58,180 nt of DNA, taken from the NCBI RefSeq assembly GCF_009936135.1, contig NZ_CP047901.1:1-58180 (forward strand), written 5' to 3'. The notes under the pieces are model-generated. The model searched no databases. It saw only the letters and a program-made list of their open reading frames with translations, and was not told the DNA's origin. This DNA comes from Candidatus Chazhemtobacterium aquaticus. Its GTDB lineage: Bacteria; Patescibacteriota; Microgenomatia; UBA1400; Chazhemtobacteraceae. Within the stretch, counting starts at the first letter, position 1. Every line of letters starts with the position of its first letter. Shown in pieces: positions 1-58,180 of this stretch. The position numbers and the translations under genes are program-made.

Positions 1-1
1 G

Positions 2-3000
2 AGTTTTGAGAGTAACCATCTCACTCTAAAGACCTACAACCAAGGTAATATCCTCTTAGATTCTGTCTTAACCCAGTTGTCTGGTGGTTTGTCTGTATCC
101 TCCTACGCCACCATCTCTTCATCTCTAGCTCTAGGTAACACCAATGCCTCAGCTGGCCCCGGACACCTTAACATGACTGGTAACCTTACCATGGGTGGCA
201 ACCTTAATCTGACCTCAGAAGCTCTACAAACCAACTCCACCACTAGAATAACCAACACCGGTAACCTAACCAACATTGGTACTACCCAGTTTAATGGTTT
301 GACATATACCTGGCCAGCCACCCACGAAACCTCTGGCTACGTCTTGAGCAACAACGGTTCCGGTACCTTAACCTGGGTAGACGCCAACTCAGCCGCTTCA
401 GGTAGCATCTACTGGACCCAAACCGGTGCAGCAGTTCATCCCAAGAACTCCACCGTTGACCTGCTTGTTGGTGGATCTGCTACCTCCTCTGCCAAGTTTG
501 CTGTCCTAAACATCAACTCTGGCACTCCCACAGCCAGCATCTCTGGCACCACCGCCAATGTCGCTACCTACCTAACGGGTCAAGGTAATCTTGCCACCAC
601 CAACATGGCCCCATTAACCATTGGCGGCTCTACTACTGGCAGCCTTACCCTTGATGAGAACACTACCATCACCGGTAATCTTGCTCTATCAGGCAACGAA
701 GCCGATCTCACCTTCTCTGGCACCGGCAACCACGACATCACTGCCTCAGCCGGTACCCTTCGCTTTGGTGCTGCCACCTTAACCGGTGCTATCACCGGCA
801 ACTCCCAAAACATCACCGGTCTAAACAATCTAACTGGTGTCACCTCCACTTTCTCTACCTCAATCACTACTCCTCTACTCACCAACGCTGGCAACCTCAC
901 CCTCTCCGCCACTGGTGCCAATAATATTCTCTTCTCCACCAACGGCACAGAAAGATGGCGCGTCACCAGCACTGGCATTCTTCAATCCAACGGTGCCCAA
1001 ACCATTCAAACCTCCAACGCCAACCTAACCCTCGCCACTGGCGGTGGCAATGGCCACATCGTTCTTACACCCAACGGTACCGGCAATGTTGGTGTCAATA
1101 ACGCCTCACCCGCCTACAAACTCGATGTCACTGGCGATATTAACTTCACCGGCGCTCTTCGAGCCAACGGCACTGCTGGCACCACTGGTCAAGTCCTTGT
1201 CTCTCAAGGATCAAGCAATCCTGTTTGGAGCGACATTTCAGGAGCAATTGGTGGCGATGCCTGGCTCCAGGGCGGCAACTCCTTTGGTGCTACCGGCATT
1301 CTTGGTACCAACGACAGCAACGACCTTCAATTTGAGACCAACAACACCACTCGCATGACCATAGACACCTCAGGTGATGTAGGAATTGGCACCACCAATC
1401 CTGGAGCCAAACTTGAAACCGCAGGTGCCATCTCCATAACCACCGGCTACGGGACCATCAGCTCCACTGACATTCGCAACCCTACCCTCGGCGGAAGAGG
1501 TACCTCACCCAATGCTGGTTCCCTAGCCTTCGGTGATAACACTGGCTGGAAATACCATATTGGCACCTCCGTTACTGGCACCTTCACCCCTAGAGTCACC
1601 TTCGTCGACTCAGGCAACGTCGGTATTGGTAACACCGCTCCAACCTCACTTCTCTCTGTAGGATCATCCTCCCAATTCCAAGTCGATTCCTCCGGACGTA
1701 TGGTTAGAATCGACGGAGTCGCCCACACCATTGATGATGTCTCTGGTAACTTAACTCTTACCAGCAACTCCACCACCATTTCCCTAAACGACAATGTCAC
1801 CTTCGCTGGCACCACTACCTTAAACGGCCTCACCTATACCTGGCCAGGATCACAAACCGCCAACTATGTCCTTTCTACCAATGGTTCAGGTACTCTAACC
1901 TGGGTCGCTGCCGATGCAGCTGCCGCCGGCAGTATCTACTGGACTCTTACCAATGAGCAACTTCATCCCAAAAACGCTTCCTGGCACGATCTTATGATCG
2001 GCGGCACCTCCACTGCTTCCGCCAAGTTCTTCGCCCAAGCCAACACTGGTGACGGATATTTCTCAGGTGAACTCGGTCTTGGTACTACTACTCCCACCGC
2101 CAAGCTCGACATCCAAGCCACTCCATCTGTTTACACTAGCGAGGTTGGTAACATCAGAATCAGCAACGCCAGCGACACCACCGAAAAACTCTACCTAGGC
2201 TTCGACAACAACCTCGGCACCTATGGTTCTGGATATATTCAATCCTCTAAAACCGGTACCACCTGGCTTCCCACCCTTATCAACCCCAACGGTGGCTATG
2301 TTGGCATCAACAACACCAGCCCATCCCGAGCTCTCCACGTCGAAGACGACAGTGGCATCTACGTTGGAGATGGAACTAAAAATATCCAGATCTTCACCTC
2401 AGGTACTGACAACGACATCTCCTCATCTCACACTCTTCACCTTAACTACAACAACAACCAAGCTGTTTCTGTCGGCGAAGGTGGTACCAGCAACCTTTAC
2501 GTCTCCGGCAGTGTTGGTATTGGCAATACCTCACCTACCTCCCTTTTCTCTGTTGGCTCCTCATCCCAATTCCAAGTCAACTCCTCAGGTAACATCGTTA
2601 ACCTCGGTGGTGCAGCCCACTCCATCAGTAATGCTTCCGGAAATCTCACCATCAACTCCGCTGGCACCCTCGTTTTAGCTGACACCAACATCCAACTCTC
2701 TGGTGGCTCCACCACCTTTGATGTATACAATAACGCTGCCGACACCACCCTCACTATCAACAACTCAAGTGCTACCTACCGCTCCCACCTTTCCTTAGAG
2801 GGCCAACTTAAACTCGGTACCTACACCGCCACTCCATCAGGTATCGCTGCTGGTGCCGTTTACTACGACACCACTCTTGACCGTCCCTACTACTTCAACG
2901 GTCTAGGCAACTGGGTTCCTTTCAGTGCCGGTGAAGGTGGAGGCGGATCAAAATGGACTATCACCGATGGATCACTTCACCCCAACAACTCAACTCTAGA

Positions 3001-6000
3001 TCTCACCATTGGTGGCTCCTCCACCAGCTCCGCTGCTTTCGCCTTCACTGGTATCTCATCCTCCACCAGAACCGCCACCATCTCAGGTAACTTAGCCCTC
3101 TCTGTTCCTACCGGATCCGCTCCCACCACCTCACTTAATATCCTTAACGGTGGCAGCTTCAATATCAAAACCTCTGTTGGTGGAGATGCTGGCCTCGCTT
3201 CCCGCCTCTTCATCAGTAACGATGGCAAAGTCGGTATTGGTACTACTTCCCCCCTGAGCGAACTTCACATCCCCAACGGCACCATCCGCACCGACGGCTT
3301 TGTCAGCGAAAGCGACTGGGGCAGCTTTGGTTTCAATATGTATTGGGACAATACTCAATCACAATGGGAATACGCCAGTAACGGTTACGCCTCCCTTATC
3401 CAACAAGACGGCACCAATGGTGGTCTCTACATTGCCACCGCCACCAGTGGCACCGCCGGCAATCTAGCCAGCTGGTCCAAAGCCCTTACTATCGACGTCG
3501 ACGGTAATGTCGGCATCGGCACCGATACACCTCAGGCCAAACTCGACATTGCCGGTGCTTCCTCCACCATCACCAACACCTCAGGTGACATCACCATCAA
3601 CTCAGCCTCTGGCAAAATCTCCTTTGCTGGTGACTCACTCAACAACTTCCTCCACGCCACTGCCTCAGGCCAGATCAAACCCGGTTCATATGGCAGCAAC
3701 CCCTACCCCATTGGTGACGGTGCCATCATCTACCGCTCCGACTTAAACCAACTCTACTACTATAACGGCACCTCCTGGCAATCCATGGGCTCCGGCTCTG
3801 GCTACTGGGACGTCTTCAGCGGTCTTCTCTTCCCCTCCAACTACTCCACCTACGATCTAGCTGTTGGTGGCAACACCACCGCCTCAGCCAAATTTTTTGT
3901 CAACCACTCCACCGGAGCCATCAAGATCGCTGACTCTGCCGGTACCGATTTCCATACCATTGCCAACGATGGTAACAACCTCAAGATCACCGGCAGCAGC
4001 AACGGTTCCAAAGTCATCCTCCAACCCGATCTCCAGATCAATGGTGGCGATATCCTGGGCTCATCAGGCTCCACCAGAATCTCTCTTGTGGATACTCTAA
4101 GCCTCACCTCAGTCTCTGGTTTCCTCGCCATTGATCGAGCTGCTACCATCTCCGCGGGTCTAGCTAGCGACCTTACTCTCCACCTCAAAGGTGCCGCCAG
4201 TCAAACCGCCAACTATATGGCCATCACCAGCAATGGTGGTTCCACTGGTAATATCTTTGCAGTTGATAGCTCAGGTAATGTCGGTATAGGCAGAACCTCC
4301 CCCAGTGCCAAACTCGATGTAGCCGGCTCCGCCACTATTTCAGGCACCTTAGCCGTTGGTGTCATGAACCAAGCCGATGCCGGCACCTGTAATGCTGCCG
4401 CCGAAGGTCGCATCTTCTACGACAAAGGAGTCCGCCTTTACAAAGCCTGCACCTACAACTCAGACGACTCATCCTACGCCTGGCGCCCCTTAGGTGGTCT
4501 CTCCGATCAACACCGTCGAGACATTTCCACCGATTCCGTTGTCAACAACCAAGTCATCCGTAAAGGTTGGACCTATTCACAAGGTGCCGCAGTCAACCAA
4601 CAAGCCACCGTTTCCTACGGCATTACCTTCGATGATGTTCCCATCGTAGTTGCCGCCCGCGCCGGTAACAAAACCGCCGCTCCTGCTCCCACCAGCCTTA
4701 GCGATTGTACCTCCAGCACCTACTACATCGAAAAAGGTGTTTCCATGAAAAACATCAGCACCACTGGCTTCCAAATCGAAGTCGGCAGCAGCACTGGAGC
4801 TTACGACACTAGCGACTATGTCTGTTTCACCTGGATCGCCATCGGTTCCTACTCATCAGGTTACGGTGCTGACCTAGCTGAGTACTATCTCACCCACGAT
4901 GCCAGCCTTGATGCTGCTGAAATCGTTGCTATCGACCCCGACAACGACATCGCCGTCACCAAAGCCGATCCCACCACCAACCCCGCCGTTATCGGTATCG
5001 TCTCCACCCAAGCCGGAGCCATCCTTGGTAACAAAGACGGTACTACTCCAGGTGTTGAAACCTCCATTACCGGTCAAGAGGTTGAAAACGGCAGCAAAAC
5101 TGTCCCTGTCGCTCTCGCCGGCCGAGTTCCTGTTAAAGTCAGCCTTGAGAACGGCCCCATCTACCGCGGTGACGCCCTTACTCTCTCACCCACTCTTCCT
5201 GGTACCGCCGTCAAAGCCACCACTCCCGGCCCCATCATCGGTAGAGCTTTGGAAAACTTCACCGGCACTGCCACTATCGTCGACTCCCTAGATCCAGATC
5301 AAGTTAACAATGAACAGCAGCTTGAGCAGGAAGCCTTCAACGACCTTAACCAGGGCATCGGTAAGATCATGGTCTTCATTCAAAACTCCTACTACTCTCC
5401 TGTCATGACTGCTTCCTCTGCCACTTCCTCAGCCACCATAGCCTTTGATCATCAAGGCAATCTCATCAACCCCAACGATGACCTAACAGCTCAAGCTCAA
5501 GCCTCCACCCAAACCGATTTCTCCTTCTTTGATCGCTTCATCTCCCTCATCGTCAAGAACCTAACTGCCCTAAACATCACCAGCCGCTCTATCACCACCC
5601 AAGAACTCGTCTCCCCTCTAGTTGATGCCGACCAAATTACCACCAATACTCTCACCACTAACCTCATCAAGCCTCAATCAGACTCTGACCTGATCCTCTC
5701 GCTCAATAACCAATCCGCTACCACTCCAGCCCAGCTTCTCATCACCGACAGTCAGGACAATACCGTCACCAGCATCGACTCCTCTGGTAACGCTACCTTC
5801 TCAGGAGAGCTAGTTGCCAACTCTGCCAAATTTGACTCCCTCGAGGTAGGCAACCTTAAAGCCAACCAGATTGAAGGCCTAACCGACACCCTCTCCCAGA
5901 TCAAATCAGCCTCGGAAGCAGCCCAGCTTTTCTTAGATCGCCTCACCGCCAAGCACTCTCTTCAGGACGAGTCGCTTAACGCCACTGCTCAACAACTCAT

Positions 6001-6829
6001 CTCTACTAGTAGCAGTCAGCTCATCTCTACCCTAGAAGACAACTTCACTCTTGACAGTGATGGCACCCACCTAGCTCTTACCGGCCTCTCCTCCGACTAC
6101 GCCTACTTCAGTGACTACCTTGCTGTTGAAGGTACCTTAATGACCAACGATCTCTACGTCGAAAACAACCTCATCACCTCCTCCATCTCAAGTCCTCTGG
6201 ATGCTGATGATCAAACCCTCTACCTCCAACCCACTGGTACCGGCGCCATCAACCTTCTATCAGGTCTCCTTATTCTTGATGAATCAGGTACTGTTTCCTT
6301 AAATGGCAACCTCATTGTTACAGGTACTCTCGAATCAGGCTCCGCCACTATCTCCGGCACTCTTGATCTGAGGGCTACCAACCTCGACAACAGCGGAGAA
6401 GCTACTCACTCCGGCTTTGGTCGCCTCCTCTCCATCTACAATGAGCAAGGTGAGCAAGTTGCCAGTGTTAACGCCTCTGGCTCAGCCCAGTTTAACGACC
6501 TCACCACTCGCCAAATCATCATCGCCGCTTCCCAAGACTCCACCCCATCAGCCAGTCAACTCTCCACCAACAGCAACACAACTATTGGCACTGCCACCAT
6601 CCCCGCCGGTGAACTCACCACCTACATCGAAAACAACAATATTTCAGACACTACCCTCATCTACATAACCCCCATCTCCGACACCAAAAACCAAGTCCTT
6701 TATGTTAAAAATAAGTATAGCTGTCCGGTTGATGCTCCTCTCTCCTGCCAACCCTTCTTCACTGTTGCCATCAACCAACCCACCACACAAGACATCCAAT
6801 TTAACTACTGGCTCATCCAGACTCAATAA
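2..6829 (+). CDS. Giant repeat-rich surface protein, tail-fibre-like; 5' end lies outside the window
   Basis: Frame 2 is open from nt 2 to TAA at 6827-6829. Codons 2-76 read SFESNHLTLKTYNQGNILLDSVLTQ without a stop, so the TTG at 77 in the ORF track is an artefact. The protein is T/S/N/G-rich with many copies of the fibre-type motif VGIG(T/N)T(S/N)PxAKLD(V/I). Larger diverged repeats are (F/L)NGLTYTWP..GSGTLTWV..GSIYWT..HPKN at nt 290-520 and 1821-2050, and VGIGNT(A/S)PTSL(L/F)SVGSSSQFQV at nt ~1618 and ~2512. An ADLAEYY...PVALAGRVPVKV module lies at 4864-5262. Confidence 0.85.
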   Translation, partial: SFESNHLTLKTYNQGNILLDSVLTQLSGGLSVSSYATISSSLALGNTNASAGPGHLNMTGNLTMGGNLNLTSEALQTNSTTRITNTGNLTNIGTTQFNGLTYTWPATHETSGYVLSNNGSGTLTWVDANSAASGSIYWTQTGAAVHPKNSTVDLLVGGSATSSAKFAVLNINSGTPTASISGTTANVATYLTGQGNLATTNMAPLTIGGSTTGSLTLDENTTITGNLALSGNEADLTFSGTGNHDITASAGTLRFGAATLTGAITGNSQNITGLNNLTGVTSTFSTSITTPLLTNAGNLTLSATGANNILFSTNGTERWRVTSTGILQSNGAQTIQTSNANLTLATGGGNGHIVLTPNGTGNVGVNNASPAYKLDVTGDINFTGALRANGTAGTTGQVLVSQGSSNPVWSDISGAIGGDAWLQGGNSFGATGILGTNDSNDLQFETNNTTRMTIDTSGDVGIGTTNPGAKLETAGAISITTGYGTISSTDIRNPTLGGRGTSPNAGSLAFGDNTGWKYHIGTSVTGTFTPRVTFVDSGNVGIGNTAPTSLLSVGSSSQFQVDSSGRMVRIDGVAHTIDDVSGNLTLTSNSTTISLNDNVTFAGTTTLNGLTYTWPGSQTANYVLSTNGSGTLTWVAADAAAAGSIYWTLTNEQLHPKNASWHDLMIGGTSTASAKFFAQANTGDGYFSGELGLGTTTPTAKLDIQATPSVYTSEVGNIRISNASDTTEKLYLGFDNNLGTYGSGYIQSSKTGTTWLPTLINPNGGYVGINNTSPSRALHVEDDSGIYVGDGTKNIQIFTSGTDNDISSSHTLHLNYNNNQAVSVGEGGTSNLYVSGSVGIGNTSPTSLFSVGSSSQFQVNSSGNIVNLGGAAHSISNASGNLTINSAGTLVLADTNIQLSGGSTTFDVYNNAADTTLTINNSSATYRSHLSLEGQLKLGTYTATPSGIAAGAVYYDTTLDRPYYFNGLGNWVPFSAGEGGGGSKWTITDGSLHPNNSTLDLTIGGSSTSSAAFAFTGISSSTRTATISGNLALSVPTGSAPTTSLNILNGGSFNIKTSVGGDAGLASRLFISNDGKVGIGTTSPLSELHIPNGTIRTDGFVSESDWGSFGFNMYWDNTQSQWEYASNGYASLIQQDGTNGGLYIATATSGTAGNLASWSKALTIDVDGNVGIGTDTPQAKLDIAGASSTITNTSGDITINSASGKISFAGDSLNNFLHATASGQIKPGSYGSNPYPIGDGAIIYRSDLNQLYYYNGTSWQSMGSGSGYWDVFSGLLFPSNYSTYDLAVGGNTTASAKFFVNHSTGAIKIADSAGTDFHTIANDGNNLKITGSSNGSKVILQPDLQINGGDILGSSGSTRISLVDTLSLTSVSGFLAIDRAATISAGLASDLTLHLKGAASQTANYMAITSNGGSTGNIFAVDSSGNVGIGRTSPSAKLDVAGSATISGTLAVGVMNQADAGTCNAAAEGRIFYDKGVRLYKACTYNSDDSSYAWRPLGGLSDQHRRDISTDSVVNNQVIRKGWTYSQGAAVNQQATVSYGITFDDVPIVVAARAGNKTAAPAPTSLSDCTSSTYYIEKGVSMKNISTTGFQIEVGSSTGAYDTSDYVCFTWIAIGSYSSGYGADLAEYYLTHDASLDAAEIVAIDPDNDIAVTKADPTTNPAVIGIVSTQAGAILGNKDGTTPGVETSITGQEVENGSKTVPVALAGRVPVKVSLENGPIYRGDALTLSPTLPGTAVKATTPGPIIGRALENFTGTATIVDSLDPDQVNNEQQLEQEAFNDLNQGIGKIMVFIQNSYYSPVMTASSATSSATIAFDHQGNLINPNDDLTAQAQASTQTDFSFFDRFISLIVKNLTALNITSRSITTQELVSPLVDADQITTNTLTTNLIKPQSDSDLILSLNNQSATTPAQLLITDSQDNTVTSIDSSGNATFSGELVANSAKFDSLEVGNLKANQIEGLTDTLSQIKSASEAAQLFLDRLTAKHSLQDESLNATAQQLISTSSSQLISTLEDNFTLDSDGTHLALTGLSSDYAYFSDYLAVEGTLMTNDLYVENNLITSSISSPLDADDQTLYLQPTGTGAINLLSGLLILDESGTVSLNGNLIVTGTLESGSATISGTLDLRATNLDNSGEATHSGFGRLLSIYNEQGEQVASVNASGSAQFNDLTTRQIIIAASQDSTPSASQLSTNSNTTIGTATIPAGELTTYIENNNISDTTLIYITPISDTKNQVLYVKNKYSCPVDAPLSCQPFFTVAINQPTTQDIQFNYWLIQTQ

Positions 6830-6832
6830 TCT

Positions 6833-9800
6833 ATGGCGCTCAACCTAAAACCCACCATCTTAAAAATCTCCTCTTGCACAAAACACGCTCTCTTAAAAGT
6901 TCCACCCCTAATCAGACAAGTCCGTCCCACCATCACCACTCACTATCGCCGATTTAAAAGAAATCCTCGCCACTACTTACTTACCCACCGTCGCCAAACC
7001 TTAATTGCTACCTCTCTCCTTCTCCTCTTTCTCTTTGGTCTAATTAACTCAAGCCTTACTTTCTTAAGCAACCTCCCCCCTCAAGCACCACCCTTCACCA
7101 CCCCTCTCGTCTCTGATTACTACATTCATGCCGAAAACCAAGTCTTTTCAGCCAGGCTTGGTAACAAAGATACCAAGTCTCCCTCAGTCAATTTCCGCGT
7201 TAACAACCAAGACATCACTTTTTCCCTAAAAGACGCCAACCCCTCCAAGCCTAAGAAAAAAGGCCAATCTCTCATCTTCGAAAACGTGGCTGACCATCTC
7301 AATATCTCCTATCAAACCCTACCAAACGGTATCAAAGAAGAACTAATCCTTACCAAACTACCAACTACTAATACTTTCCACTTCACCCTCGACTACTCCA
7401 ATCTTAATAGTCCTAAAGTTCTAAACAACATCAATGCCCCAGTTTTTTACGACCAACAAGGCAACTATCTCTTCCACTTTGAAAAACCCTTCGCTTACGA
7501 CTCAGCCGGCAACAGATCCGATGACGCCAGCCTCATCATCAAAATCGACCCAGATACTAACAAATATATAGCCCAACTTTCTGTCTCTCAAACCTGGCTC
7601 TCCTCCCCCGACCGTGTCTACCCCGTTTACATCGACCCCACCATTGTTCACGACAACTCCTCAGAATTCTCCGGCACTATGAATCGCACCCACGACGCCG
7701 GATCAGGCTCAGCACCAATAATCGAAAACTATTATCTTGAAAACACAACCGACGCAAGTACCGTCGGACTATGGCACATGAACGACATTTCCGGGTCAAC
7801 AATCACAGACTCAAGCGGACAAAACAATAACGGTACTGCCACAGGAACCACCATCACAACTGGATTGCTCGACAACGCTAGGAGTTTTAATGGGAGCAGT
7901 GATTACGCTGTAGTTCCAAATAATAAAAGCCTCGAACCGCCCACTAGTATCACCTTCGAGTCGTGGATAAAAATAGAAGGTGATGGTAGCCATTCTGACG
8001 GCGTCTATATCCTAACCAAGGGACAGCACAGCGCTCAACCATATTTTTCATACTCACTCGGTTATTACGCGGCATCAGATTTAATCGGGTGTAACATTGC
8101 CATCAGCGGAACATACAGGCAAGTTACGTCACAATCAACTTTTACATCCTCAAGCCCGTGGACACACGTAGCGTGCACTTACGACGGAAACGAAATCGCC
8201 ATCTATATAAACGGTATAAAAGAAAATAGTGCTGCATACTCAGGATCAATCAACTACGGCCTTAACACCAGTAATGATCTTAGAATTGGTGACTGGGGAT
8301 ATTCCACATATACAAGGAGATTCCAGGGAAAAGTCGATGAAGTCCGCATCTCAAACACCGCTCGAACTCCTGAAGAAATCTGGGCATCCGCTCAAAAAAA
8401 ACCATCAAGTACATATACCTCCCCTGTTATTGACCTAACCAACGCTACCAGCTTTAACTCACTTTCATGGTCCGGAACAGGTATCCCCACCGGAGATGGT
8501 GAAACCGCCAGTAGCAGTTCTGGTCTGGTTGCCCAATGGAACTTTAACGAAACCTCCGGTACCACCGCCAGTGTCGCCACCGGTTCTTGTGGTTCTACCT
8601 GTAACGGTACACTCACCAACTTTTCCAACACCTCTAGTCAAGACGCCCTCGCTAACTCTGGCTGGACAGCCATCCATAACCGCTGGGGTACTGGTGCTAT
8701 CAACCTTGACGGCACTGACGACTATATCTCCGTCACACAAAATGCCAGCATTAACTTTAATCAAACTAGTCCATTCACCATTGAAGCGTGGGTAAAACCA
8801 ATAGGATCAGGATATATAGCCAACAAACAACAAAATGTAACCAACGAATTTGTTTGGAGTCTTGATTACAACTCCTCAACAAATAAATTCGCATTTTCAC
8901 TCTCGAAACAAAATGTTTCCGGCCTTACTGCCACATCAGCAGAGTCATTTTTACCCGGAAAATGGTATCACGTTGTTGGTGTTAGTAATGGAACAGACTT
9001 TTATATCTACGTAAACGGCCGACAACAAGCCAGCACCAACATTAGCTTCACAGGTGCTACCCAATCTCTTGCAACTCTCTATTTTGGTCAGTTATATAAC
9101 AACACTAATCGATTAAAAGGAACCATCGACACCATTCGTATATACTCCAGAGCTCTTACAGCCGGTGAAATCCTCAGCAACTACAACCACACCCAACTCC
9201 AATTCCAAACCAGAACCAGCACTGACTCTGCCTCCTGGGAAGCCTGGAAAACCACCAGCAACGATACTCAAATATACTCCTTTGACGACACTACTCTTTT
9301 TAACCCCTCCCAGTCAGGCCTAATTGGCTACTGGCCTTTTAATGAAACCAGTGACAACTCCTGTCCAGGTGGTGAAGACGCCTGTGACGCTACCAGCAAC
9401 TCCAATGACGGCACTGCCACCGGAACCAACATTGTTGATGGTGTTTTCGGTAAAGCCCGTCGTTTCAGCAGTTCAACCATTAACGCCGGTAACGTCTCCC
9501 CCTTAAGCTTTCTTGAATACAACAGCAACATGACCTTCAGTGCCTGGATCAAAACCGGTACCGACCAGTCCGGCACCATTCTCTCCAAACAAGAATCGTC
9601 AGGCAACTACCGTGGCTACAACCTCCAAACTGGCAGCGGTGGATACATATATTTCCAACTCGTCAACATCTACTCCACCAATACTCTCGAGGTCAGATCG
9701 ACAAACAATCTTAATTTCTACGACAACCAATGGCACTTAGTTACTGCCACCTACGACGGCTCCGCCACGCCGGCAGGAGTCAAGATCTACTTCGACGGTA

Positions 9801-14797: not shown

Positions 14798-15557
14798 TAA
14801 TCAACCAAGCTTATCCAACCACACCTACTCCACTAAAAGCACAATCCTCATATATTTTTCCTATAACACTATCAATCTACTATTATCTACCAATCAGCAT
14901 ATCAAAACATAAACTAGGACATCTTTAGACATCAAGCTCCTCTATCCTTTTACGTCAATCATCAATAAACATTCTCCAACCCCTACTTACCAAACACATC
15001 TCTATATACTCAACTCACACTCATCATCCAAAATAAACACTCTCGATACCTCCACCCTCTTTTCTCCAATCATTAGGAAAAACCAACCAAGCTCTTCATC
15101 TTTCCAACAACTCGCCTTCATACATCTTTGCAACACATTTTTAAACATACCTTTTTATAGACACCTCTCCCAAAACGTCTCAAACACCATCTAGAAGCGT
15201 TCCCAGCCTCAAGCAATCTCTCTCATCTAGCCACAAACCCCATTTAACATACCAATATAAAACAATTTTCTCTTCTTCATTAGCAAGTAATCAGTCTTCA
15301 CTCTCACCACACTACTCCACCAACAACAAACACTAACTATCTACTTCTCGCCAATAATATCTCCAACTCCTAATCAAAAAAATTACTCAGTTCATCTAAT
15401 TTTCCGTATGCTCACACGTATGCCAATATCTACTCAATACCTCCCCCCTTAACCACTAAAGTGAACACATTTTGTCTACTCACGCTCTGTATCCCATTTC
15501 CTCCCCCCAATACTCTAAAATGAACTAAGTACCTGGTGGTATCTGTATGTCTTGAAT

Positions 15558-19189: not shown

Positions 19190-19272
19190 TTTATCTTAAG
19201 TCAACATCACAAAACTCCACCAAACAACACCATATTATCTTATGTTACTATCGACATATACTATATAGTTAC

Positions 19273-21444: not shown

Positions 21445-21462
21445 ATGTGTATATAATGAATA

Positions 21463-38697: not shown

Positions 38698-38699
38698 CC

Positions 38700-44972: not shown

Positions 44973-45072
44973 CTCTAATTATTAACCTATCTTTAAGCAG
45001 ACAGGTCATGTAAATTACTTGATAACAATAGCCGTCATTTTATCACACCTCTAGGCTCAAGCACAATCACCG

Positions 45073-46155: not shown

Positions 46156-46174
46156 AATTATACTACTCCTAGCC

Positions 46175-47056: not shown

Positions 47057-47095
47057 GTTCCCATCTTATCACCCCCACCTGTTTTTAAGAATCCT

Positions 47096-48007: not shown

Positions 48008-48011
48008 ACTC

Positions 48012-49316: not shown

Positions 49317-49318
49317 TT

Positions 49319-50302: not shown

Positions 50303-52137
50303 ACAACAGTTACATCACTATACCGATGTCCATCATCACTTAATCTTCGTTCAATCTCCAGCTTGGCCTCACTACCTACCCCTGCCACCACCAACTCAAA
50401 AGTATAAAGTTGACCATCGCCCTCGGTTTTACCCAATCTGATCACCCCCCCAAATTCACTAATCAATCCGCTCACCTCAGCCATTATCCCCCTCTCATCC
50501 CGACCTGCCAGCCTTATCTTCATCAATCCCGACCTCACCCCCTCCAACTCACTTCTCTCAAATACCCTAACTACCTCCTCTACTGCCCTATTTCCCAATC
50601 CCATCTCTAAATACAGCTCCTCAATATCTCTAACTCCAAGCTCCATCAACACCAAGCGCATCTTCTTCCGTTCATTCTCACCCCAAACCAAGTCATTCAA
50701 ATCATCAAATCCCTTCGACTTCATCCAGGATGTTAACAAACCTCTGCCACGCTCAAGATCAGCCGTCGCTCCAATCTCTTTAGCTATCTCCTCTAACTTC
50801 TCTCTTGTTTTAGGCAACATCGCATACTCAAACAATCCAACATCCACCCCATTACCCTCCTTCATTACCAGTCTCACCACCGCTGCATTTGGAATATTAA
50901 TACTCAAAGGAAACTCTCTATCATCAACCAATATTGATCCCACACTATGTAATAACTGCGGATCAATACTCACCACCAAATCCACCCCAGTTGCTTCCTC
51001 AGGTAAAAACTTAATCACCCTCCCCTCAGTATCAAAAAATAGCTTTAGACTGTACCTGCTCACATCCTCTCCCCTTCTCAAACCTCTCACCACCCCCCAA
51101 GCATTAAACTCCTCCATCTCCTCAGTTACAAATGCTACCTCTGTTGATCCTTCTTTTAGTCTTAATCCCTCATGCATCGCCCGATACCCGTTATACGTCT
51201 TTTCTGTTATGTAATCATCCGCCCTTTGTGGATCAACCAATCCATCCTCGCTTACCCTTATATACTGACTAGCCATCCGGCAATCAAGTTCACTAGGCAA
51301 TACCACCCTAAAACTAACTAACTGAACCTGTGAAAAATCTCTAGCTCGCATGCTCTCCCTTTTCTTAACTGCCTCCCAATATCCCATCACCTGCCACTCA
51401 ACTCTACCCTCAACTCCCATCTCAACCAACATTCTCTCCAATCTTGTCTGCCAATGATACAAAAACTCTCTTCTTAGCCTCAAGTCACTATCTATCCTTC
51501 TCTTAGCCTCCTCCATCTTCTCTGGATATAGATAAAACACCGACAAATCCTCCAGTTTTCGTTTTACCTCCCACACCCCCAAAGACTCAGCCAGTGGCAC
51601 ATACACCTCAAACGTTTCTCTCGCTTTAGCAATCCTCTTTTCCTGAGGCATCGGCTCTAACGTCATCATATTATGCGTCCTGTCGGCTAGCTTAATCAAC
51701 GCCACCCGTGGATCCAAGCCACTCTCTCTTACCACCCTCTTTGTCGTCTCAATATCCTCCTGTCTCTTTGTTCTTCCCGTTCCCTTTAACTCAGTTACAC
51801 AACCAACCAACTTTGCCACCTCTGCACCAAACTTAGCTTCCAATTCCTCCAAACTTACTCCAGCATCCTCAACCACATCATGAAGCAACGCAGCTGCCAA
51901 AATCTGTTCATCATCTATACCCATCACCTCTCTAACCAAACTAGCTACCGCCACCAAATGATCGGTATAATCAGAGCCATCCCTTCGTTTCTGACCTGCA
52001 TGTTTCTCCAGTACAAAATCATATGCCTGTCTTTCAAGCTCACTACCAGATTGATACTCCTCTGTTTTTAACGCAAATCCCCATCCCTTTCTTAACTCAA
52101 AATCAACTCTATGTATATCTCTCTCCAATCCTGACAT
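50299..52137 (-). CDS. RelA/SpoT homolog (long RSH): intact HD hydrolase domain, degenerate synthetase domain, TGS and ACT domains
   Basis: HD motifs are HLVAVA, LLHDVVED and IKLADRTHNMMTL. The synthetase-region equivalents are altered:
- GRxKxxxSI is replaced by MGYWEAVKK.
- DLxxxR is replaced by QLVSFR.
- YQSLHT is replaced by YRAMHE.
- EVQIRT is replaced by EVAFVT.
The C-terminal ACT-like segment is IRLAGRDERGIMAEVSGLISEFGGVI. The gene overlaps the downstream 7TM gene by 4 nt. Confidence 0.85.
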   Translation of the reverse strand: MSGLERDIHRVDFELRKGWGFALKTEEYQSGSELERQAYDFVLEKHAGQKRRDGSDYTDHLVAVASLVREVMGIDDEQILAAALLHDVVEDAGVSLEELEAKFGAEVAKLVGCVTELKGTGRTKRQEDIETTKRVVRESGLDPRVALIKLADRTHNMMTLEPMPQEKRIAKARETFEVYVPLAESLGVWEVKRKLEDLSVFYLYPEKMEEAKRRIDSDLRLRREFLYHWQTRLERMLVEMGVEGRVEWQVMGYWEAVKKRESMRARDFSQVQLVSFRVVLPSELDCRMASQYIRVSEDGLVDPQRADDYITEKTYNGYRAMHEGLRLKEGSTEVAFVTEEMEEFNAWGVVRGLRRGEDVSRYSLKLFFDTEGRVIKFLPEEATGVDLVVSIDPQLLHSVGSILVDDREFPLSINIPNAAVVRLVMKEGNGVDVGLFEYAMLPKTREKLEEIAKEIGATADLERGRGLLTSWMKSKGFDDLNDLVWGENERKKMRLVLMELGVRDIEELYLEMGLGNRAVEEVVRVFERSELEGVRSGLMKIRLAGRDERGIMAEVSGLISEFGGVIRLGKTEGDGQLYTFELVVAGVGSEAKLEIERRLSDDGHRYSDVTVV

Positions 52138-52223
52138 CTTACTCCCAGATCATACAAAAAAATCATCCAAAAAGCAAATACTACAGGACACAACGCTCCT
52201 TTACCATTTCCGTCGTAAACCGA

Positions 52224-53465
52224 CTATTCCATCTCTACTACTCCAAAATCTTTCTTTCCCTTCCTTACCAAAAAATACTTATCATAAAACAACTCGTAAC
52301 TTACACCGTTTTGTTCAACTACTCTTCGAGCCTCACTCTTGGAGCTAACTAAACCTAGCTCCACCAACACTTCTTCAATAACTATCTCTGATTTACTCTT
52401 AATCTCCATATGGGGAATTGCCAGCTTAACAAACTCAAAGTCGCTCCTACTCATCCTTTCCTTACCCCGATCGAACAAAACTTGAGCCACTTTACGTGAC
52501 TGCTTTGCCTTTTTCTCACCATGTACTGTTGTCACCAACTCCTCCGCTAAAACCCTTTGCACCAATCTACCCTGACGATCTTTGTCCCAATCGCTCAACA
52601 CCTTCTTAATCACTTTTATGTCTTTAAATGAATAAAACTTTAACAAAGTTGGTGCCAATTCATCACTTACATTAATCAAAAACTGATACAGGCCAAAGGG
52701 ATGAGTCTTTTCAGGATCAAGCCAGATCGCTGATCCAGATTCTGTTTTGCCAAACTTTCTTCCAGTTTTTGGATCAACAATCAATGGAAAAGATAAACCA
52801 TGAGCCGTTTTCTCATACTTCCTTCTAATCAAATCGACTCCTTGCAAGATATTGCCCCACTGGTCAGACCCACCCATCTGCACATTACATCCATGTTTCT
52901 CAAACAATACTGCAAAATCATATGCCTGCAACAACTGATACGAAAACTCTGCGTAAGATAATCCCTGTTCTCGTTCCAACCTTGCTTTCACTGACTCCTT
53001 GTCCATCATTGAACTAACTGGCATATACTTACCCACTTCTCGCAAAAACTCAATCAGCTTAACCTTCCCCAACCAATCAACATTATCAATCATATGCACT
53101 CTCTTACCATCAAAATCCAAAAATCTAGATAATTGTTTCTTCAACTTCCTCTTATTTGCCTCAATCACTTTGTAATCCACCATTGGCCTCTCCGCGTCCT
53201 TTCCAGACGGATCTCCAATCAACGACGTTCCTCCACCCATAATGATAATCGCCTTATGTCCAGCATCTACAAATCTCTTCGCCATCGTCACCCCCATCAA
53301 ATGACCGATGTGCAAACTGTCTCCCGTCGGATCAATCCCAATATACACCGTCACCTCTTTGCTCAAATCCTTGTCCAACCCGGGTGTTGCATCATAAACC
53401 AAACCCCGCCACTTAAGATCTCTCCAAAAATTTTTATCAATCATTGTCATAATTTTATCACTCAT
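52224..53465 (-). CDS. tyrS: Tyrosine--tRNA ligase
   Basis: Class I HIGH motif (DSLHIGHL), KMSKS equivalent KFGKT, GGSDQWGN, and a C-terminal S4-like domain (SKSEARRVVEQNGV). Confidence 0.95.
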   Translation of the reverse strand: MSDKIMTMIDKNFWRDLKWRGLVYDATPGLDKDLSKEVTVYIGIDPTGDSLHIGHLMGVTMAKRFVDAGHKAIIIMGGGTSLIGDPSGKDAERPMVDYKVIEANKRKLKKQLSRFLDFDGKRVHMIDNVDWLGKVKLIEFLREVGKYMPVSSMMDKESVKARLEREQGLSYAEFSYQLLQAYDFAVLFEKHGCNVQMGGSDQWGNILQGVDLIRRKYEKTAHGLSFPLIVDPKTGRKFGKTESGSAIWLDPEKTHPFGLYQFLINVSDELAPTLLKFYSFKDIKVIKKVLSDWDKDRQGRLVQRVLAEELVTTVHGEKKAKQSRKVAQVLFDRGKERMSRSDFEFVKLAIPHMEIKSKSEIVIEEVLVELGLVSSKSEARRVVEQNGVSYELFYDKYFLVRKGKKDFGVVEME

Positions 53466-53468
53466 TAA

Positions 53469-54239
53469 TTACTTAAGTGTCACCATCATCCCATCACGAG
53501 CAAGCAAACACCTTTTTGCCCGCAGAAAATTCTCTATCTCCTTAACATTCTCAGAATGATTTACATGAGTATAAATCACCTCTCGCTTCAATATATCCAC
53601 AGATTTCTCAATTGTCAGATGATTAAATTTTGAAGCAGGATAAGTATTTTCATTTAAGAAAGTCCCATCAAATACAACAACATCAATCATCGCGATTTCC
53701 TTAATCATCTTTTCTGTTATCTCGCTCACATCAGGTGAATACCATACCTTACCTGACGAATCGGATACGATTACAGCCACTGTGGGAAATCCAGGGTCAT
53801 GGGGAACATCGACCAGCTTCACTCCACACTTCTTTGCATTATCCTCACTCACCAACTTAACAAAACCTGACTTGACCATATACTCAATTTCTTGATTGGG
53901 AAACCTTTTCCAAAGTCTCCGAACCCTCTCAGACACCAACACCGGAACCTTACACGGCCGACCTCCAGACAACTCAATTAACCCATTCGCATGATCAAAA
54001 TGAAAATGAGTTATCACAATCAAATCTAAATCTCGAATCTTCAATCCAACACCACTTAATTGCTGACGAAAATCCGGACCACAATCCAATAGAATTCTTG
54101 ACCTTTTTGTCTCAACCAACAAACTACTCCTCAGCCGCTGTTTATTCTTTTTCTTTAAAGCAGCACGGCAATACTTACAGTCGCAATCCACTTGAGGCAA
54201 ACCACCATTAGCGCCAGTTCCCAAAAAAGTTATCTTCAT
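53469..54239 (-). CDS. MBL-fold metallo-hydrolase (PhnP/tRNase Z-like)
   Basis: The N-terminal FLGTGANGGLPQVDCDCKYC has the Cys cluster seen in PhnP/PqqB-like members. The HxHxDH motif is ITHFHFDHANG. The 4-nt overlap (ATGA, 54236-54239) is with the upstream NTase-like gene. The stop (53469-53471) lies 3 nt upstream of the tyrS start at 53465. Confidence 0.8.
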   Translation of the reverse strand: MKITFLGTGANGGLPQVDCDCKYCRAALKKKNKQRLRSSLLVETKRSRILLDCGPDFRQQLSGVGLKIRDLDLIVITHFHFDHANGLIELSGGRPCKVPVLVSERVRRLWKRFPNQEIEYMVKSGFVKLVSEDNAKKCGVKLVDVPHDPGFPTVAVIVSDSSGKVWYSPDVSEITEKMIKEIAMIDVVVFDGTFLNENTYPASKFNHLTIEKSVDILKREVIYTHVNHSENVKEIENFLRAKRCLLARDGMMVTLK

Positions 54240-55177
54240 TTCAACCCATTACTAATTCGCAACTCTGTCAATACTGGCCACAACTTAATCACTCCCCTAT
54301 ACAGACCTTCCACCTCATCCAAATCAACCGCCGAACCCATTGACCTCAATCGACGAATCTCATGAACTACAGTCACTAACGCCTCACTTCCTAGGGCATT
54401 CGGGAAATTATCAATAATTTCTTCCCAAGTACCAACCTCAATATTCTTACCGTCCTCAACAACATTAGCCATCGCCCATTTTAAGCTGTAATCCAACACA
54501 TGTATCGTTTGAGGACCCAAAAACTCTACCGGCAATACATGTCTATTTGTCCTCAACATTCTAAAATTATCACTAATGCCATCTAAACCTCCTACTGTTA
54601 AATTATGATCGCTTATCACCACCCCAGCTCGCGCCATCTCAGCTATTTGACGGGCCGCCTCCTCATCACCCCACAAACCCAATGATTGTCCAAATAATCC
54701 TCTTGTTAGCTTGGGAGGCTCAAATGCCAAAGCCGCCCTTGCTGAAGGGTAAATCAATGAATGAACCATATGAAGATTGGCATCAGGACCAGCCACCAAA
54801 CGTGCAATCGCCATCTGGGCATCTTCAAGTCTAATCGTCGAAGCAAACACTGGGGTTGTCCCAAATTTTTCCATAATCTTTCTCGTTGCAACGTTCATTG
54901 CATCTAAAACCAAATCGTAAGCGTCTAAATTAACTGGATCGTCTTCTTGAGCACCGTCAAGCAAAATTACCAAATCATCATCACTGATCACTCCACCAAC
55001 TTCCCCTTTAAGCTCAGCCTGTCTAGCCTTACTTCCAGAAACTGCAATCCACTTAACTCTTGCTCCTATCTCAGGGTTTTCTTTAACAGCAGTATCAATT
55101 TCATCAACTATTGCCCCAACAACTGGTTGCGCCAAAAACTCAACTCTCAATTTTTCTTGCTCTGGTGTTCTCGCCAT
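54236..55177 (-). CDS. Hypothetical protein with a Pol-beta-type nucleotidyltransferase-like signature
   Basis: The start is reassigned to the ATG at 55177 (MARTPEQEKL...), because the ORF-track start at 55270 lies inside the T-box terminator/antiterminator. The segment IAVSGSKARQAELKGEVGGVISDDDLVILLD resembles the hG(G/S)-x(n)-D-x-D NTase motif. The fold call is tentative. Confidence 0.6.
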   Translation of the reverse strand: MARTPEQEKLRVEFLAQPVVGAIVDEIDTAVKENPEIGARVKWIAVSGSKARQAELKGEVGGVISDDDLVILLDGAQEDDPVNLDAYDLVLDAMNVATRKIMEKFGTTPVFASTIRLEDAQMAIARLVAGPDANLHMVHSLIYPSARAALAFEPPKLTRGLFGQSLGLWGDEEAARQIAEMARAGVVISDHNLTVGGLDGISDNFRMLRTNRHVLPVEFLGPQTIHVLDYSLKWAMANVVEDGKNIEVGTWEEIIDNFPNALGSEALVTVVHEIRRLRSMGSAVDLDEVEGLYRGVIKLWPVLTELRISNGLK

Positions 55178-55197
55178 ATTTTTTATAAATAAATAAC

Positions 55198-55490
55198 AAA
55201 AAAGCCCTTGCTTGAATCCAAAAAAAATTAGACTCAAACAAGGGCCTTCAAGAACTAAAGACGGTACCACCTTGCTTTTGCCATTCTGTCACCAGAATGA
55301 CCTCACCGAGTGCTCTGTTTACCTTAAATAGGTGACACACTCTCGATATTTTACGGTTATCTTCCGTGTCTGATTTAGTCAGACCAGCTCCAGAGGGTAA
55401 TTTCACATTTTGAATTCGACTGGTTTGCAGCTACCACCAGCTCTCTTATGTCACTTCAAAAAGCTACTATTTCTCCTTCAACGCCTTTGA
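55198..55490 (-). promoter_or_regulatory. T-box riboswitch leader, probable Tyr (UAC) specifier, with intrinsic terminator
   Basis: Elements on the minus strand:
- T-box sequence AAGGUGGUACCGU (55273-55261).
- Canonical antiterminator: helix CAAGG/CCUUG, 7-nt bulge UGGUACC, helix GUCUU/AAGGC.
- Competing 15-bp terminator: GCCCUUGUUUGAGUC (55245-55231) with GGAUUCAAGCAAGGGC (55219-55204), then U6 (55203-55198).
- Stem I K-turn (GUU bulge, tandem G:A pairs).
- AGUA element.
- AG bulge AGAGAG followed by distal hairpin CUGGU-GGUAGCUGCAA-ACCAG.
- Specifier-loop 3' side GAAAUUACC, with UAC at 55399-55397 one nt before the lower helix. Confidence 0.85.
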
Positions 55491-55510
55491 CAAAATTTTA
55501 AAGTAAAAAC

Positions 55511-55539
55511 AAAGTACCAAGACAAAAACAAACTGTCAA
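55511..55539 (-). promoter_or_regulatory. Candidate promoter for the T-box leader (TTGACA-17-TACTTT)
   Basis: On the minus strand, -35 is at 55539-55534 and -10 at 55516-55511. It sits directly after the lysS stop. Confidence 0.35.
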
Positions 55540-55548
55540 CCTTAAGCC

Positions 55549-57006
55549 TTACCTCTCAGGTCGCAAAGTCGGAAAAATAATTGTATCCTTCAAATTAGGC
55601 TGATTTGTCACAATCGCTGTAAATCGATCAATCCCCATTCCCCATCCTGCCGTTGGTGGCATACCATACTCAAGCGCTCGAATATAATCCTCATCTAGCA
55701 TCTGTGCTTCCTTAAAACCTGCCTCCAACAGCTTTTTCTCCTCCTCCCATCTCTCTCGCTGATCTTGTGGATCATTAAGCTCATTATATGCATTAAAAAT
55801 CTCAAAACCGGCTACCACCAAAGCCACACTTGCCACCTTACTTGGATCACCACTCTTTCTTTTTGCCAACGGCTTCATTTCATACGGATGATCGATCAAA
55901 AAAACCGGCCCCGTCATTTTGGGTCTGCAATACTCCTTATACAACTCATCCAACACATTGGCATACCCCTCTACCTCCTCCAACTCTACTTTCAGCCCCC
56001 TACTCTTAATCATCTCCCGCAACCCCTTTTCATCCTTGACTTCATCAATATCAATCTTCGTATCCCGAAACACTAAATCTCTGAAGGTAATCCTCTCCCA
56101 ACCTGGACTAAAATCAATTTTCTTACCCTGATACTCTATCTTATACTTCCCTGTTACCTCCTTTACTGCCCCACCCAACATCTCCTCTGATAACTTCATT
56201 AAATCCTCATAGTTGGCATATGCCCAGTAAAACTCCATCATTGTAAACTCTGGATTATGTTGCCGATCGATTCCCTCATTTCGAAAATCCTTAGCAATCT
56301 CATATACCTTTTCATATCCCCCCACAATCAATCTCTTTAGATACAACTCATCAGCAATTCGTAAATAAAACTCACTCTTCAACGCGTTATGAAAAGTCTT
56401 AAAGGGTCTCGCGGTCGCTCCTCCGTAAATTGGCTGTAACACTGGTGTTTCCACCTCCATAAACCCCTTTTTATCCATAAACTGACGCAGAAATCTCACC
56501 ATCCGTGTTCTTGCATCAAACACCTTCCTCACCTCTGGGTTAAGTATCAAATCTACATACCTCTGCCGATATCTCTCCTCCACATCCTTAAATCCATGCC
56601 AACTCGAAGGCAGTGGCCTTACCGCCTTACTCAACAATCCAAACACCTTTACCTCCACACTTATCTCTCCCGCCTTAGTCTTAAACACACCACCACCTGC
56701 TTGCACAAAATCACCAATATCCACCAACTCCTGTATCATCCACTCCCTCTCACTCACGTTATCCTTCTTTATAACCAACTGCATTTGACCTGACTCATCT
56801 CTCAAATCCATAAAAATCAAACCTCCATGCCCCCTTATTGCCATCACTCTACCAACCACCTTCACTTTCTCACCCTCTTTCTCCCTTGCCTCAGCAATAA
56901 CATCTGTCCTTTCCGTCTTTCCAATATACGGATCTACTCCCAGCTCCTTAAGCTGCTTAATTTTTTCAATTCTCTGTTCTCTAATTCCTGACAATCTCCC
57001 GGCCAT
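55549..57006 (-). CDS. lysS: Lysine--tRNA ligase (class II)
   Basis: N-terminal OB anticodon-binding domain. Class II motifs are FMEVETPVLQ, FRNEGID..HNPEFTMMEFY and GMGIDRF. Confidence 0.95.
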   Translation of the reverse strand: MAGRLSGIREQRIEKIKQLKELGVDPYIGKTERTDVIAEAREKEGEKVKVVGRVMAIRGHGGLIFMDLRDESGQMQLVIKKDNVSEREWMIQELVDIGDFVQAGGGVFKTKAGEISVEVKVFGLLSKAVRPLPSSWHGFKDVEERYRQRYVDLILNPEVRKVFDARTRMVRFLRQFMDKKGFMEVETPVLQPIYGGATARPFKTFHNALKSEFYLRIADELYLKRLIVGGYEKVYEIAKDFRNEGIDRQHNPEFTMMEFYWAYANYEDLMKLSEEMLGGAVKEVTGKYKIEYQGKKIDFSPGWERITFRDLVFRDTKIDIDEVKDEKGLREMIKSRGLKVELEEVEGYANVLDELYKEYCRPKMTGPVFLIDHPYEMKPLAKRKSGDPSKVASVALVVAGFEIFNAYNELNDPQDQRERWEEEKKLLEAGFKEAQMLDEDYIRALEYGMPPTAGWGMGIDRFTAIVTNQPNLKDTIIFPTLRPER

Positions 57007-57050
57007 GGCTGAATTTTACCCCAAAGCCAACCCACACGCTACTCATCTGC

Positions 57051-58016
57051 CTACCAACTAGGTAATCTTCCAGTCAGATATTTCTCCACATCCAAAGCCG
57101 CCTGCACTCCCATTCCCGCTGCTGTGATTGCCTGACGATACCGAAAATCAACCACATCTCCAGCCGCAAACACTCCCTCAACCGAACTCATCGTTGGATA
57201 ACCCTCTAACCACTCTTTTCTTTCCTCCACACTATTCTTCACCATTCTTGTCACCACATACCCGTGACTGTCAACCTCAATCGCATCACCCAAAAAATCA
57301 GTATCAGGAATATGTCCAATCGCTAAAAACAAACCATCAGCCTCTACCTCTTCCTCCTTACCCGTCTTTACATCTTTTATTTTAATACCTTCCAGTATAC
57401 TTTCGCCCTTAACTCCCACCACCTCGCTGTTCCACCTCACCCTAACCTTGTCTTCACCCAAGACTCTCTCCTGCATCACCTTACTAGCTCTAAATTCATC
57501 TCTTCTGTGGACTATCTCCACCCTTTTAGCAAACTTAGCTAAAGCCAAAGCATCCTCCATCGCTACATCTCCACCTCCAACTAAATAGGTGATCTTATCT
57601 TTAAAAAAAGCTGCGTCACAAGTCGCACAAGTACTCACCCCTCTCCCTAACAATCTCTCCTCACCCACATTAAGCATTTTCGCCCTCGCCCCCGTGGCCA
57701 CTATCACTACTTTAGCCTCCTCTAGCTGGTCACCTACCCAAACTTTTTTAAACTCCCCTCCAAGCTCAACCTTTGTTACATTCTCATTTCGTATCTCCGC
57801 TCCAAACTTTTCCGCCTGAGTTCTCATCTCCACCATCAACTCAGGACCCTGAATACCCTTTGCGAAACCTGGATAGTTTTCCACTTCAGTCGTCAACATC
57901 AACTGACCCCCAGCCTTCTCTCCTGCCAGAACCAACGGGTTAAGCCTAGCCCTAGCCAAATATATGGCTGCCGCATAACCAGCTGGACCCGATCCAATTA
58001 CAATTACCTCTCTCAT
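57051..58016 (-). CDS. trxB: Thioredoxin-disulfide reductase
   Basis: FAD motif [14 protein letters not shown], redox-active CATCDA, NADPH motif [12 protein letters not shown], and C-terminal GVFAAGDV. Confidence 0.95.
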
Positions 58017-58180
58017 ATCACCTTCTTAATCATATTCTCATACATTACCCTACCTCCAAATCCAACTTGTCGATCCACTTCCTTACCATCCTTAAACATT
58101 ATCACCGTCGGGATACTCATCACTCCAAACCTCATTGCTGTTTGCTGGTTTGCATCAACGTCCAATTTACCAACCTCAAC
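58013..58180 (-). CDS. trxA: Thioredoxin, C-terminal 55 codons only (N-terminus outside the window)
   Basis: Not in the ORF track because it is under 60 aa. The minus-strand frame from 58180 reads [55 protein letters not shown]. This matches the thioredoxin C-terminal half (KxDVDxN...FGVxSIPTxxxFKxGxxVDxxVG). Its stop overlaps the trxB ATG (ATGA). Confidence 0.8.

Follow-up and report, generated by a model that had tools for sequence, protein, structure and literature searches.

Why is one strand of a bacterial chromosome starved of guanine, whatever the orientation of its genes? The question is raised by the first 58,180 nucleotides of the tiny, uncultured bacterium 'Candidatus Chazhemtobacterium aquaticus' Ch65, that is, bases 1-58,180 of a single-contig, closed genome of 801,504 bp; this whole stretch of DNA is called the window below. 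An earlier note, made from the letters of the window, had described an excess of C over G on the plus strand across genes of both orientations. Our results show that the bias is mutational, fixed to one physical strand and active, and that it coexists with a conventional oriC-dif architecture.

The observation itself is already known for the Ch65 genome. Kadnikov et al. (2020; PMC7143001) announced its G/C disparity in their title; they printed the same base percentages and found the cumulative skew to be monotonic, independent of gene distribution, and also present in Collierbacteria and Beckwithbacteria. Laws of Genome Nucleotide Composition (PMC11514846) gives the same percentages and singles out Ch65 as an obvious outlier in a set of 17,873 complete genomes. 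The length and the four base percentages computed here match the published values to two decimals. The 2020 study of the disparity in UBA1400 Microgenomates thus dealt with the same genome and the same composition, but it did not locate oriC, dif or polar words and proposed one-way replication, whereas the markers found here indicate a normal two-arm chromosome. We add the conflict between the skew and the other marks of polarity, its repetition in five genomes of three families, a family-level map of the trait (7 of the 15 families sampled) and its re-imposition on orthologues that have switched strand. No paper testing the replication hypothesis for the Ch65 skew was found in the literature searched.

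Strand bias in the window and along the chromosome

The plus strand is poor in G and rich in C throughout the window (1..58180, the chromosome's first 58 kb), with no change of sign. It holds 8,458 G and 18,787 C, which gives a GC skew, (G-C)/(G+C), of -0.379 (62.6 standard deviations off G = C) and an AT skew of +0.030. All 29 bins of 2 kb had a negative GC skew (-0.10 to -0.62), as did 229 of 231 windows of 500 nt (mean -0.382); the two positive ones were at 19.25-20.0 kb, and the absolute skew was below 0.1 in ten. The skew is far beyond ordinary bacterial values, as had been stated: sister families with classical skews show 0.04-0.15. Two of the 60-nt counts quoted in the earlier note were exact (G/C 4/22 at 7021-7080 and 6/18 at 44041-44100) and two were slightly off (9/14, not 8/16, at 1-60; 6/22, not 5/24, at 27001-27060).

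Read on the plus strand, the per-gene skew at third codon positions (GC3 skew) averaged -0.63 in the 20 plus-strand open reading frames (ORFs) of the window and -0.68 in the 18 minus-strand ones. The sign is therefore independent of gene orientation, and the bias belongs to the strand and not to coding. This agrees with the claim that the excess of C does not flip with the genes; in the sliding-window calculation the skew neither stayed below about 0.1 in absolute value nor changed sign with gene orientation.

Along the whole chromosome, the GC skew was negative in 81 of 81 bins of 10 kb (-0.03 to -0.55). The plus strand contains 239,063 C (29.83%), 119,994 G (14.97%), 223,376 A (27.87%) and 219,071 T (27.33%), so that C:G is about 2:1 and A about equals T. 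The minus strand had been called G/T-rich, which is correct for G and, overall, incorrect for T. A sign change was also sought over the whole contig and none exists: the skew keeps one sign across oriC/dnaA (~210 kb) and across a terminus-like site (~685 kb). No cellular chromosome is known to violate Chargaff's second parity rule more strongly. Two islands, at 160-180 kb and 500-510 kb, have a low GC content (0.38-0.41) and a weak skew (-0.12 to -0.22); this DNA may have been acquired too recently for the strand pressure to have reshaped it.

Genes were taken as greedy longest ORFs of at least 90 codons, 396 on the plus and 346 on the minus strand of Ch65; the published counts are 449 and 389 (PMC7143001). 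Read in the sense of each gene, third positions genome-wide had C 0.358 and G 0.103 in plus genes, and G 0.358 and C 0.092 in minus genes (GC3 skews of -0.55 and +0.59); the skew of intergenic DNA was -0.285. At fourfold sites read on the plus strand, C and G were 0.407 and 0.055 in plus genes and 0.317 and 0.086 in minus genes. At twofold sites, where transitions alone are silent, C/(C+T) on the plus strand was 0.51-0.65 and G/(G+A) was 0.20-0.32, equally in both gene orientations. On the minus strand this is a shift of purines to G and of pyrimidines to T, the pattern that would be expected of C>T and A>G changes on that strand. The minus strand is about 69% purine at fourfold sites, which needs a transversion asymmetry; hence A and T are nearly equal overall.

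Transcription was rejected as the cause: both gene orientations have the same sign, and the rpoB/ribosomal-protein block, which lies entirely on the plus strand, has the same fourfold-site GC skew (GC4 skew) as other plus genes.

The proteins are shaped by the skew largely as the earlier note had proposed. Products of the plus strand are enriched in T, H, Q and P (1.7-1.8x) and in N, I and S, and those of the minus strand in M (3x), E (2x), V, W, G and R; K differs little (1.1x). The note had also linked the skew to long shadow ORFs. Genome-wide, stop-free frames that reach 100 codons or more number 311 on the plus strand opposite minus genes and 80 the other way, and TAG and TGA are 2-2.6x rarer on the plus strand. 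The Ch65 genome carries 48 tRNA genes and a tmRNA gene in 801 kb, and in the four-codon boxes among the genes listed, GNN, CNN and UNN anticodons are kept together, which suits two opposite codon regimes.

The orthologues encoded on opposite strands, which the note had advised comparing, were found in G035, a genome of the same family but of another genus (a contig of 725.5 kb). It is 25.1% G and 15.2% C, and every 20-kb bin has a positive skew. Of 396 reciprocal best hits with Ch65 (median identity 55%), 375 were on the same strand type and 21 had switched. All 21 switched orthologues were biased as the strand they now occupy; their mean sense GC3 skew was -0.53 versus +0.42 in one direction and +0.55 versus -0.39 in the other, and codon positions 1 and 2 shifted too. 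The pressure is therefore active, and a relic or 'segment memory' of an ancestral skew is ruled out. The genome is thus a natural experiment on how far mutation pressure alone can push proteins. The two genomes are nearly perfectly collinear despite their median protein identity of 55%, and identity was 41-44% in strand-switched pairs versus 54-56% in unswitched ones.

Closer comparisons were made with L004 (from a metagenome, 96.5% identical over 21.3 kb) and with three strains from public runs, the strains compared being 0-3.5% divergent; the next relative after L004 has only 60% protein identity. The differences from Ch65, which are unpolarised because the strains are not rooted and which for the public-run strains are 40 of 918 variants, were mostly transitions, and on the plus strand C<>T exceeded G<>A 2.3x (all sites) to 5x (fourfold sites). 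Between strains about 3% apart, the directions of substitution were balanced. If stationarity is assumed, T>C on the plus strand would be 3.4x as fast as A>G, and G>A 1.5x as fast as C>T.

The two-arm layout in Ch65 and its relatives

In Ch65, dnaN and dnaA are at 208.1-211.0 kb on the minus strand, with rnpA and yidC divergent to the right, and three of the seven perfect DnaA boxes (TTATCCACA) of the genome are within 209.4-214.9 kb. These marks place the predicted oriC at dnaA, at ~210 kb, between dnaN-dnaA and rnpA-yidC.

An unbiased scan for k-mers whose strand preference differs between the halves of the chromosome gave GTAGGGGA/TAGGGGAG as the top word. On the plus strand GTAGGGGA occurs 31 times, always within 219,164-682,324; on the minus strand it occurs 14 times, 12 of them in the other arm. 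A second-order Markov model predicts 0.6 copies on the plus strand of the right arm, so that the word, at ~50-fold over expectation, is kept there against compositional pressure. The strand of the word switches at dnaA and at 682-687 kb, and the word becomes denser near the latter. A gene for a Xer-like tyrosine recombinase (681,366-682,319) is located at this point of convergence, and Ch65 encodes an FtsK with a gamma domain. The convergence of the word and the Xer gene, at 681-687 kb, are ~470 kb from oriC and do not adjoin it. The word resembles the FtsK-orienting polar sequences (KOPS), and other words with arm polarity that converge on dif, in its switches at dnaA and at a Xer-flanked site, in its rise in density, and in the presence of FtsK gamma. 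Unlike KOPS, its polarity does not follow the sign of the GC skew, and binding by FtsK is putative. A dif search with the E. coli and B. subtilis consensus gave no convincing match, so that the exact dif is not fixed; a 10-nt inverted repeat with a 6-nt spacer (684,064-684,089) is a candidate only.

Gene orientation also divides the chromosome. Its cumulative curve is V-shaped, with a minimum at ~187 kb and a maximum at ~589 kb. In the right arm, the rRNA operon (413-419 kb), rpoB (300 kb) and the L16 ribosomal-protein operon (314.5 kb) are on the C-rich plus strand. The G-rich minus strand had been taken for the leading strand, and as the one that carries the core housekeeping genes. The first is right locally, as the window is in the arm where the minus strand has leading-strand polarity, and not supported genome-wide; nor is the second, given the three loci just named.

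The fit to the fourfold-site skews took 216 kb as oriC and 685 kb as the second switch of the word. In GC4 skew, the constant was -0.67, the gene-strand term 0.10 and the arm term +/-0.064, with more G on the leading strand. For the AT skew at the same sites, the constant was -0.146, the arm term 0.033 with the leading strand richer in T, and the gene-strand term 0.16. The skew is thus a large strand-fixed constant plus a small arm term of classical sign and about classical size. At twofold sites the G-rich strand is also T-rich, and in the arm term the leading strand is richer in both; through the constant, the G-rich strand is A-rich at fourfold sites, and genome-wide A about equals T. Adjusted for orientation, GC4 skew varied smoothly from -0.46 to -0.83 with no jump, although the heterogeneity of the islands weakens this as a test for a displacement origin.

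The relatives of Ch65 were represented by 20 genomes, which span 15 families of the order; in each, 20 kb on either side of dnaA was analysed where the contig allowed. In eight families (f5, f6, f8, f9, f11, f13, f14, f19) the skew flips from negative to positive at dnaA. In seven (f1, f3, f7, f10, f15, f16 and, weakly, f12) it does not flip, and the raw skew reaches 0.40. The fourfold-site skew of this non-flipping group mostly steps classically across dnaA in both gene orientations, with a median half-amplitude of ~0.09, versus ~0.11 in the classical families. The G-rich strand was the dnaA-sense strand in 11 of 11 one-signed genomes (seven families).

In G035, TAGGGGAG is split 18:0 in one arm and 2:17 in the other, with switches at dnaA and at 122-127 kb, and the fourfold-site skew has a constant of +0.54 and an arm term of 0.14. 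Three further closed genomes, G033, G015 (f16) and G002 (f3), were one-signed at 12 of 12 sampled sites each, with two levels of raw skew that change at dnaA and at the second site of the word's strand switch; in the classical genome G055 the skew flips. A one-signed skew together with a word switch at dnaA and at a second site was therefore found in five genomes of three families (Ch65, G035, G033, G015, G002), while the other marks of polarity were examined in Ch65 and, in part, in G035.

In a DnaA tree, f10, f16 and f1 grouped together, and the other one-signed families were near the base of the classical clade with no resolved placement. On this tree, the trait could have had a single origin with later loss, or several origins. 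The two arms are unequal in all five one-signed genomes named above, with only 36-46% of the circle in the arm downstream of dnaA. Gene orientation switches ~100 kb away from the polar word in Ch65 and G035, and in both the bias is weakest in the block that separates the two switches.

Most one-signed families have a family-1 Ung and most classical ones a family-4 uracil-DNA glycosylase (UDG); the genes are at 110,176-110,838 in Ch65 and at 695,544-696,155 of contig C1 in G035. The type of UDG was rejected as the cause: G035 is strongly biased and yet has a family-4 UDG, and a UDG cannot set a global polarity. This distribution looks phylogenetic, not causal.

Possible origins of the strand-fixed bias

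We prefer a model of two layers, to which we give an even chance, ahead of one-way replication: bidirectional replication, and a second, one-directional process that dominates the mutation input. The chromosome would be replicated bidirectionally from oriC at ~210 kb with an ordinary two-arm layout, and G:C pairs with G on the plus strand are lost. We infer that the constant arises from some DNA transaction that runs in one direction and is separate from the usual movement of bidirectional forks; all around the circle, it would time and again leave the dnaA-sense strand exposed, or treat it as such. One form might be an infrequent but strongly mutagenic stage during which a fixed strand becomes single-stranded over the full circle. 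Another might be a deterministic inheritance of one template strand, with its time-dependent damage preferentially passed on. That GC skew is uncoupled from fork direction here, as a chromosome-wide, strand-fixed mutational process on a bidirectionally replicating chromosome, is a tentative conclusion, to which we give somewhat less than an even chance.

If it is true, cellular chromosomes would undergo, in either form, a kind of DNA transaction that has not been described for them, and if confirmed, a new strand-specific transaction would have to be found. Skew would be unusable for finding the origin, the terminus or the direction of forks in these lineages, and its use would be undermined in genomes of the Candidate Phyla Radiation (CPR) and DPANN.

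Several results weigh against the two-layer model. The arm term of Ch65 is small and has diffuse boundaries: the best change points were at 155 and 720 kb (GC4) and at 220 and 565 kb (AT skew at fourfold sites), which do not coincide closely with oriC and dif, and the skew hardly steps at dnaA itself. Only 63-69% of coding DNA is co-oriented with the proposed arms, and tRNA genes are unbiased (24 of 49 co-oriented). Polar words and dif report the polarity of segregation and not the direction of forks directly. Skew alone cannot separate a constant plus a classical term from a mix of mostly one-way and some two-way rounds, as they are mathematically equivalent. The transition signature is as expected of ordinary exposure of the lagging template, which fits a one-way fork. 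No relaxase of PF03432 or PF08751 is encoded in the genome, other relaxase and Rep families not having been searched, and no frequent one-signed word that could be an uptake or nicking signal was found (best z score 3.6).

The only published explanation is that the origin and terminus are close together or that replication is by a unidirectional theta mechanism, with one fork in the dnaA-sense direction and the minus strand leading everywhere (Kadnikov et al., 2020; PMC7143001). The two-arm marks would then be relics, or would serve segregation only. A skew of one sign in every 10-kb bin, the G-rich dnaA-sense strand of all 11 one-signed genomes and a transition signature that equals the classical leading-strand bias are all in its favor, and a minority of bidirectional rounds would reproduce the small arm term. 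However, the polar word is ~50-fold over expectation on what would be the lagging strand of an arm of 470 kb, and the convergence of the word and the Xer gene ~470 kb from oriC would put dif far from the terminus. A single fork would meet the rRNA, rpoB and ribosomal-protein operons head-on, and the V shape of the gene-orientation curve also tells against the hypothesis. The intrinsic asymmetry would also have to be 3-5x that of the sister families and to co-vary with the fraction of one-way rounds to keep the arm term classical. The markers (oriC, polar word, Xer site, orientation of operons, and an arm term of classical size) thus speak against this explanation, which we consider rather unlikely, though the most serious of the rivals.

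Replicons with unidirectional theta or rolling-circle replication, such as plasmids, are described in a work cited there (Del Solar et al., 1998, as cited in PMC7143001). Ch65 is like them in its one-signed composition. It differs in the 55:45 distribution of its genes over the two strands, in the two arms marked off by polar words and a Xer site, in the lack of a relaxase from either family searched, and in highly expressed operons that oppose the putative single fork.

Selection on codon usage, on mRNA or on protein composition, instead of mutation, could draw on the GNN, CNN and UNN tRNAs kept for the four-codon boxes listed, which make both codon regimes decodable. But the bias is strongest at fourfold sites and present in intergenic DNA, it has opposite consequences for the mRNAs and proteins of the two strands, and it is re-imposed on genes that switch strand. 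We regard selection as highly improbable.

The earlier note had implied an ordinary replication skew of unusual strength, with the window inside one replichore and a change of sign elsewhere. In classical strand asymmetry, the sign of the GC skew changes at the origin and at the terminus (Grigoriev, 1998, and others, as cited in PMC7143001). In the arm that holds the window, the minus strand does have leading-strand polarity, and Ch65 shares with the classical pattern the gain of G over A and T over C on the G-rich strand at twofold sites and the small arm term of classical sign. Yet there is no sign switch at dnaA or at ~685 kb, the amplitude is 3-10x that of sister families, and there is no overall AT skew. 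With no sign change in 801.5 kb, none across dnaA in 11 genomes of seven families, and flips in eight sister families, this explanation is scarcely credible.

The least probable alternative, to the point of being negligible, is an artefact of assembly or of strand-specific sequencing chemistry. Nothing was found in its favor: both strands carry intact Pfam-matching genes, A = T with C = 2G is not an outcome of base-conversion chemistry, independent assemblies from other studies match (identical over the covered parts in run X3, ~97% in others, with the same composition), and the trait is common to relatives.

Two further known systems can be compared with Ch65. Vertebrate mitochondrial DNA has an asymmetry between heavy and light strands that arises through strand-displacement replication. 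Ch65 resembles it in a one-signed G/C asymmetry of comparable size at silent sites and, if stationarity is assumed, in the dominance of A>G and C>T on one strand. It differs in a genome 50x larger, a C-rich strand without an excess of A, and the presence of DnaA and oriC; nor is any gradient or discontinuity from an origin apparent in its skew, within the limits set by the islands. Codon and amino-acid usage in Borrelia and Treponema reportedly depends on the coding strand, a result associated with McInerney in 1998 and Lafay and colleagues in 1999. In Ch65 both also depend on the encoding strand, but the effect follows one physical strand around the circle, unlike the leading and lagging strands of those genomes, where it flips at the origin.

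Genes and minor features of the window

The gene identities proposed in the earlier note for obg, S1 (rpsA), the RadA-like protein and the ATP-grasp proteins agreed with Pfam, and the S/P/T linker of the RadA-like protein is present. Seven plus-strand ORFs occupy 77..24536, with giant LamG/DUF2341 surface proteins and a TPR protein by Pfam; their sense strand is the C-rich strand, and their GC3 skew is -0.56 to -0.84. The giant proteins, of secreted type and encoded within 77-19189, have 2250 and 2654 aa. The larger one has five Laminin_G_3 domains and DUF2341 and is followed downstream by two smaller LamG paralogues, and the 2250-aa protein had no Pfam match. The weak raw-skew zone of the window is at 15.5-19.8 kb. 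It contains two LamG-domain genes (15552..19189, plus strand) with raw skews of -0.14 and -0.12, and their third positions are still biased (GC3 skew -0.56 and -0.63).

The only unbiased ORF of the window (24623..25285, minus strand; GC3 skew +0.05) is doubtful: a plus-strand frame overlaps it and it has no Pfam match. The obg gene (GTP1_OBG and MMR_HSR1; 26966..28006, minus strand) has its sense on the G-rich strand and a GC3 skew, read on the plus strand, of -0.80; the transcription terminator gene rho (31459..32640, minus strand; Pfam) has -0.62. Small GC-rich ORFs (0.53-0.60) on the plus strand at 34856..36797 show the weakest bias of the window (GC3 skew -0.14 to -0.60). The radA/sms-like gene (Zn ribbon, AAA_25, ChlI; 42285..43637, plus strand) has a GC3 skew of -0.71, and its S/P/T-rich linker starts at residue 41.

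The last block, at 43773..58016, consists of fourteen minus-strand genes identified with Pfam, among them rpsA (S1; 43773-44972), mnmA, three ATP-grasp genes (46175-49316), a 7TM-transglutaminase-like gene, a relA/spoT-like gene and tyrS. Its GC3 skew on the plus strand is -0.63 to -0.86. A shadow ORF of 178 codons is opposite mnmA on the G-poor plus strand (45415..45951), and a second example is at 48690-49226.

A T-box leader (55237-55490, minus strand; Rfam RF00230, 99.4 bits) overlaps the called start of the minus-strand ORF 54236-55270. Contigs of run X6, which have a depth of about 450x, are without 464 and 338 bases in 34856-36797, so this stretch varies between strains. At 41684-41733, within the minus-strand ORF 41450-41833, a contig of run X3 that is otherwise identical over the covered parts has one copy fewer of a 48-bp tandem repeat; the repeat number therefore differs between near-identical strains.

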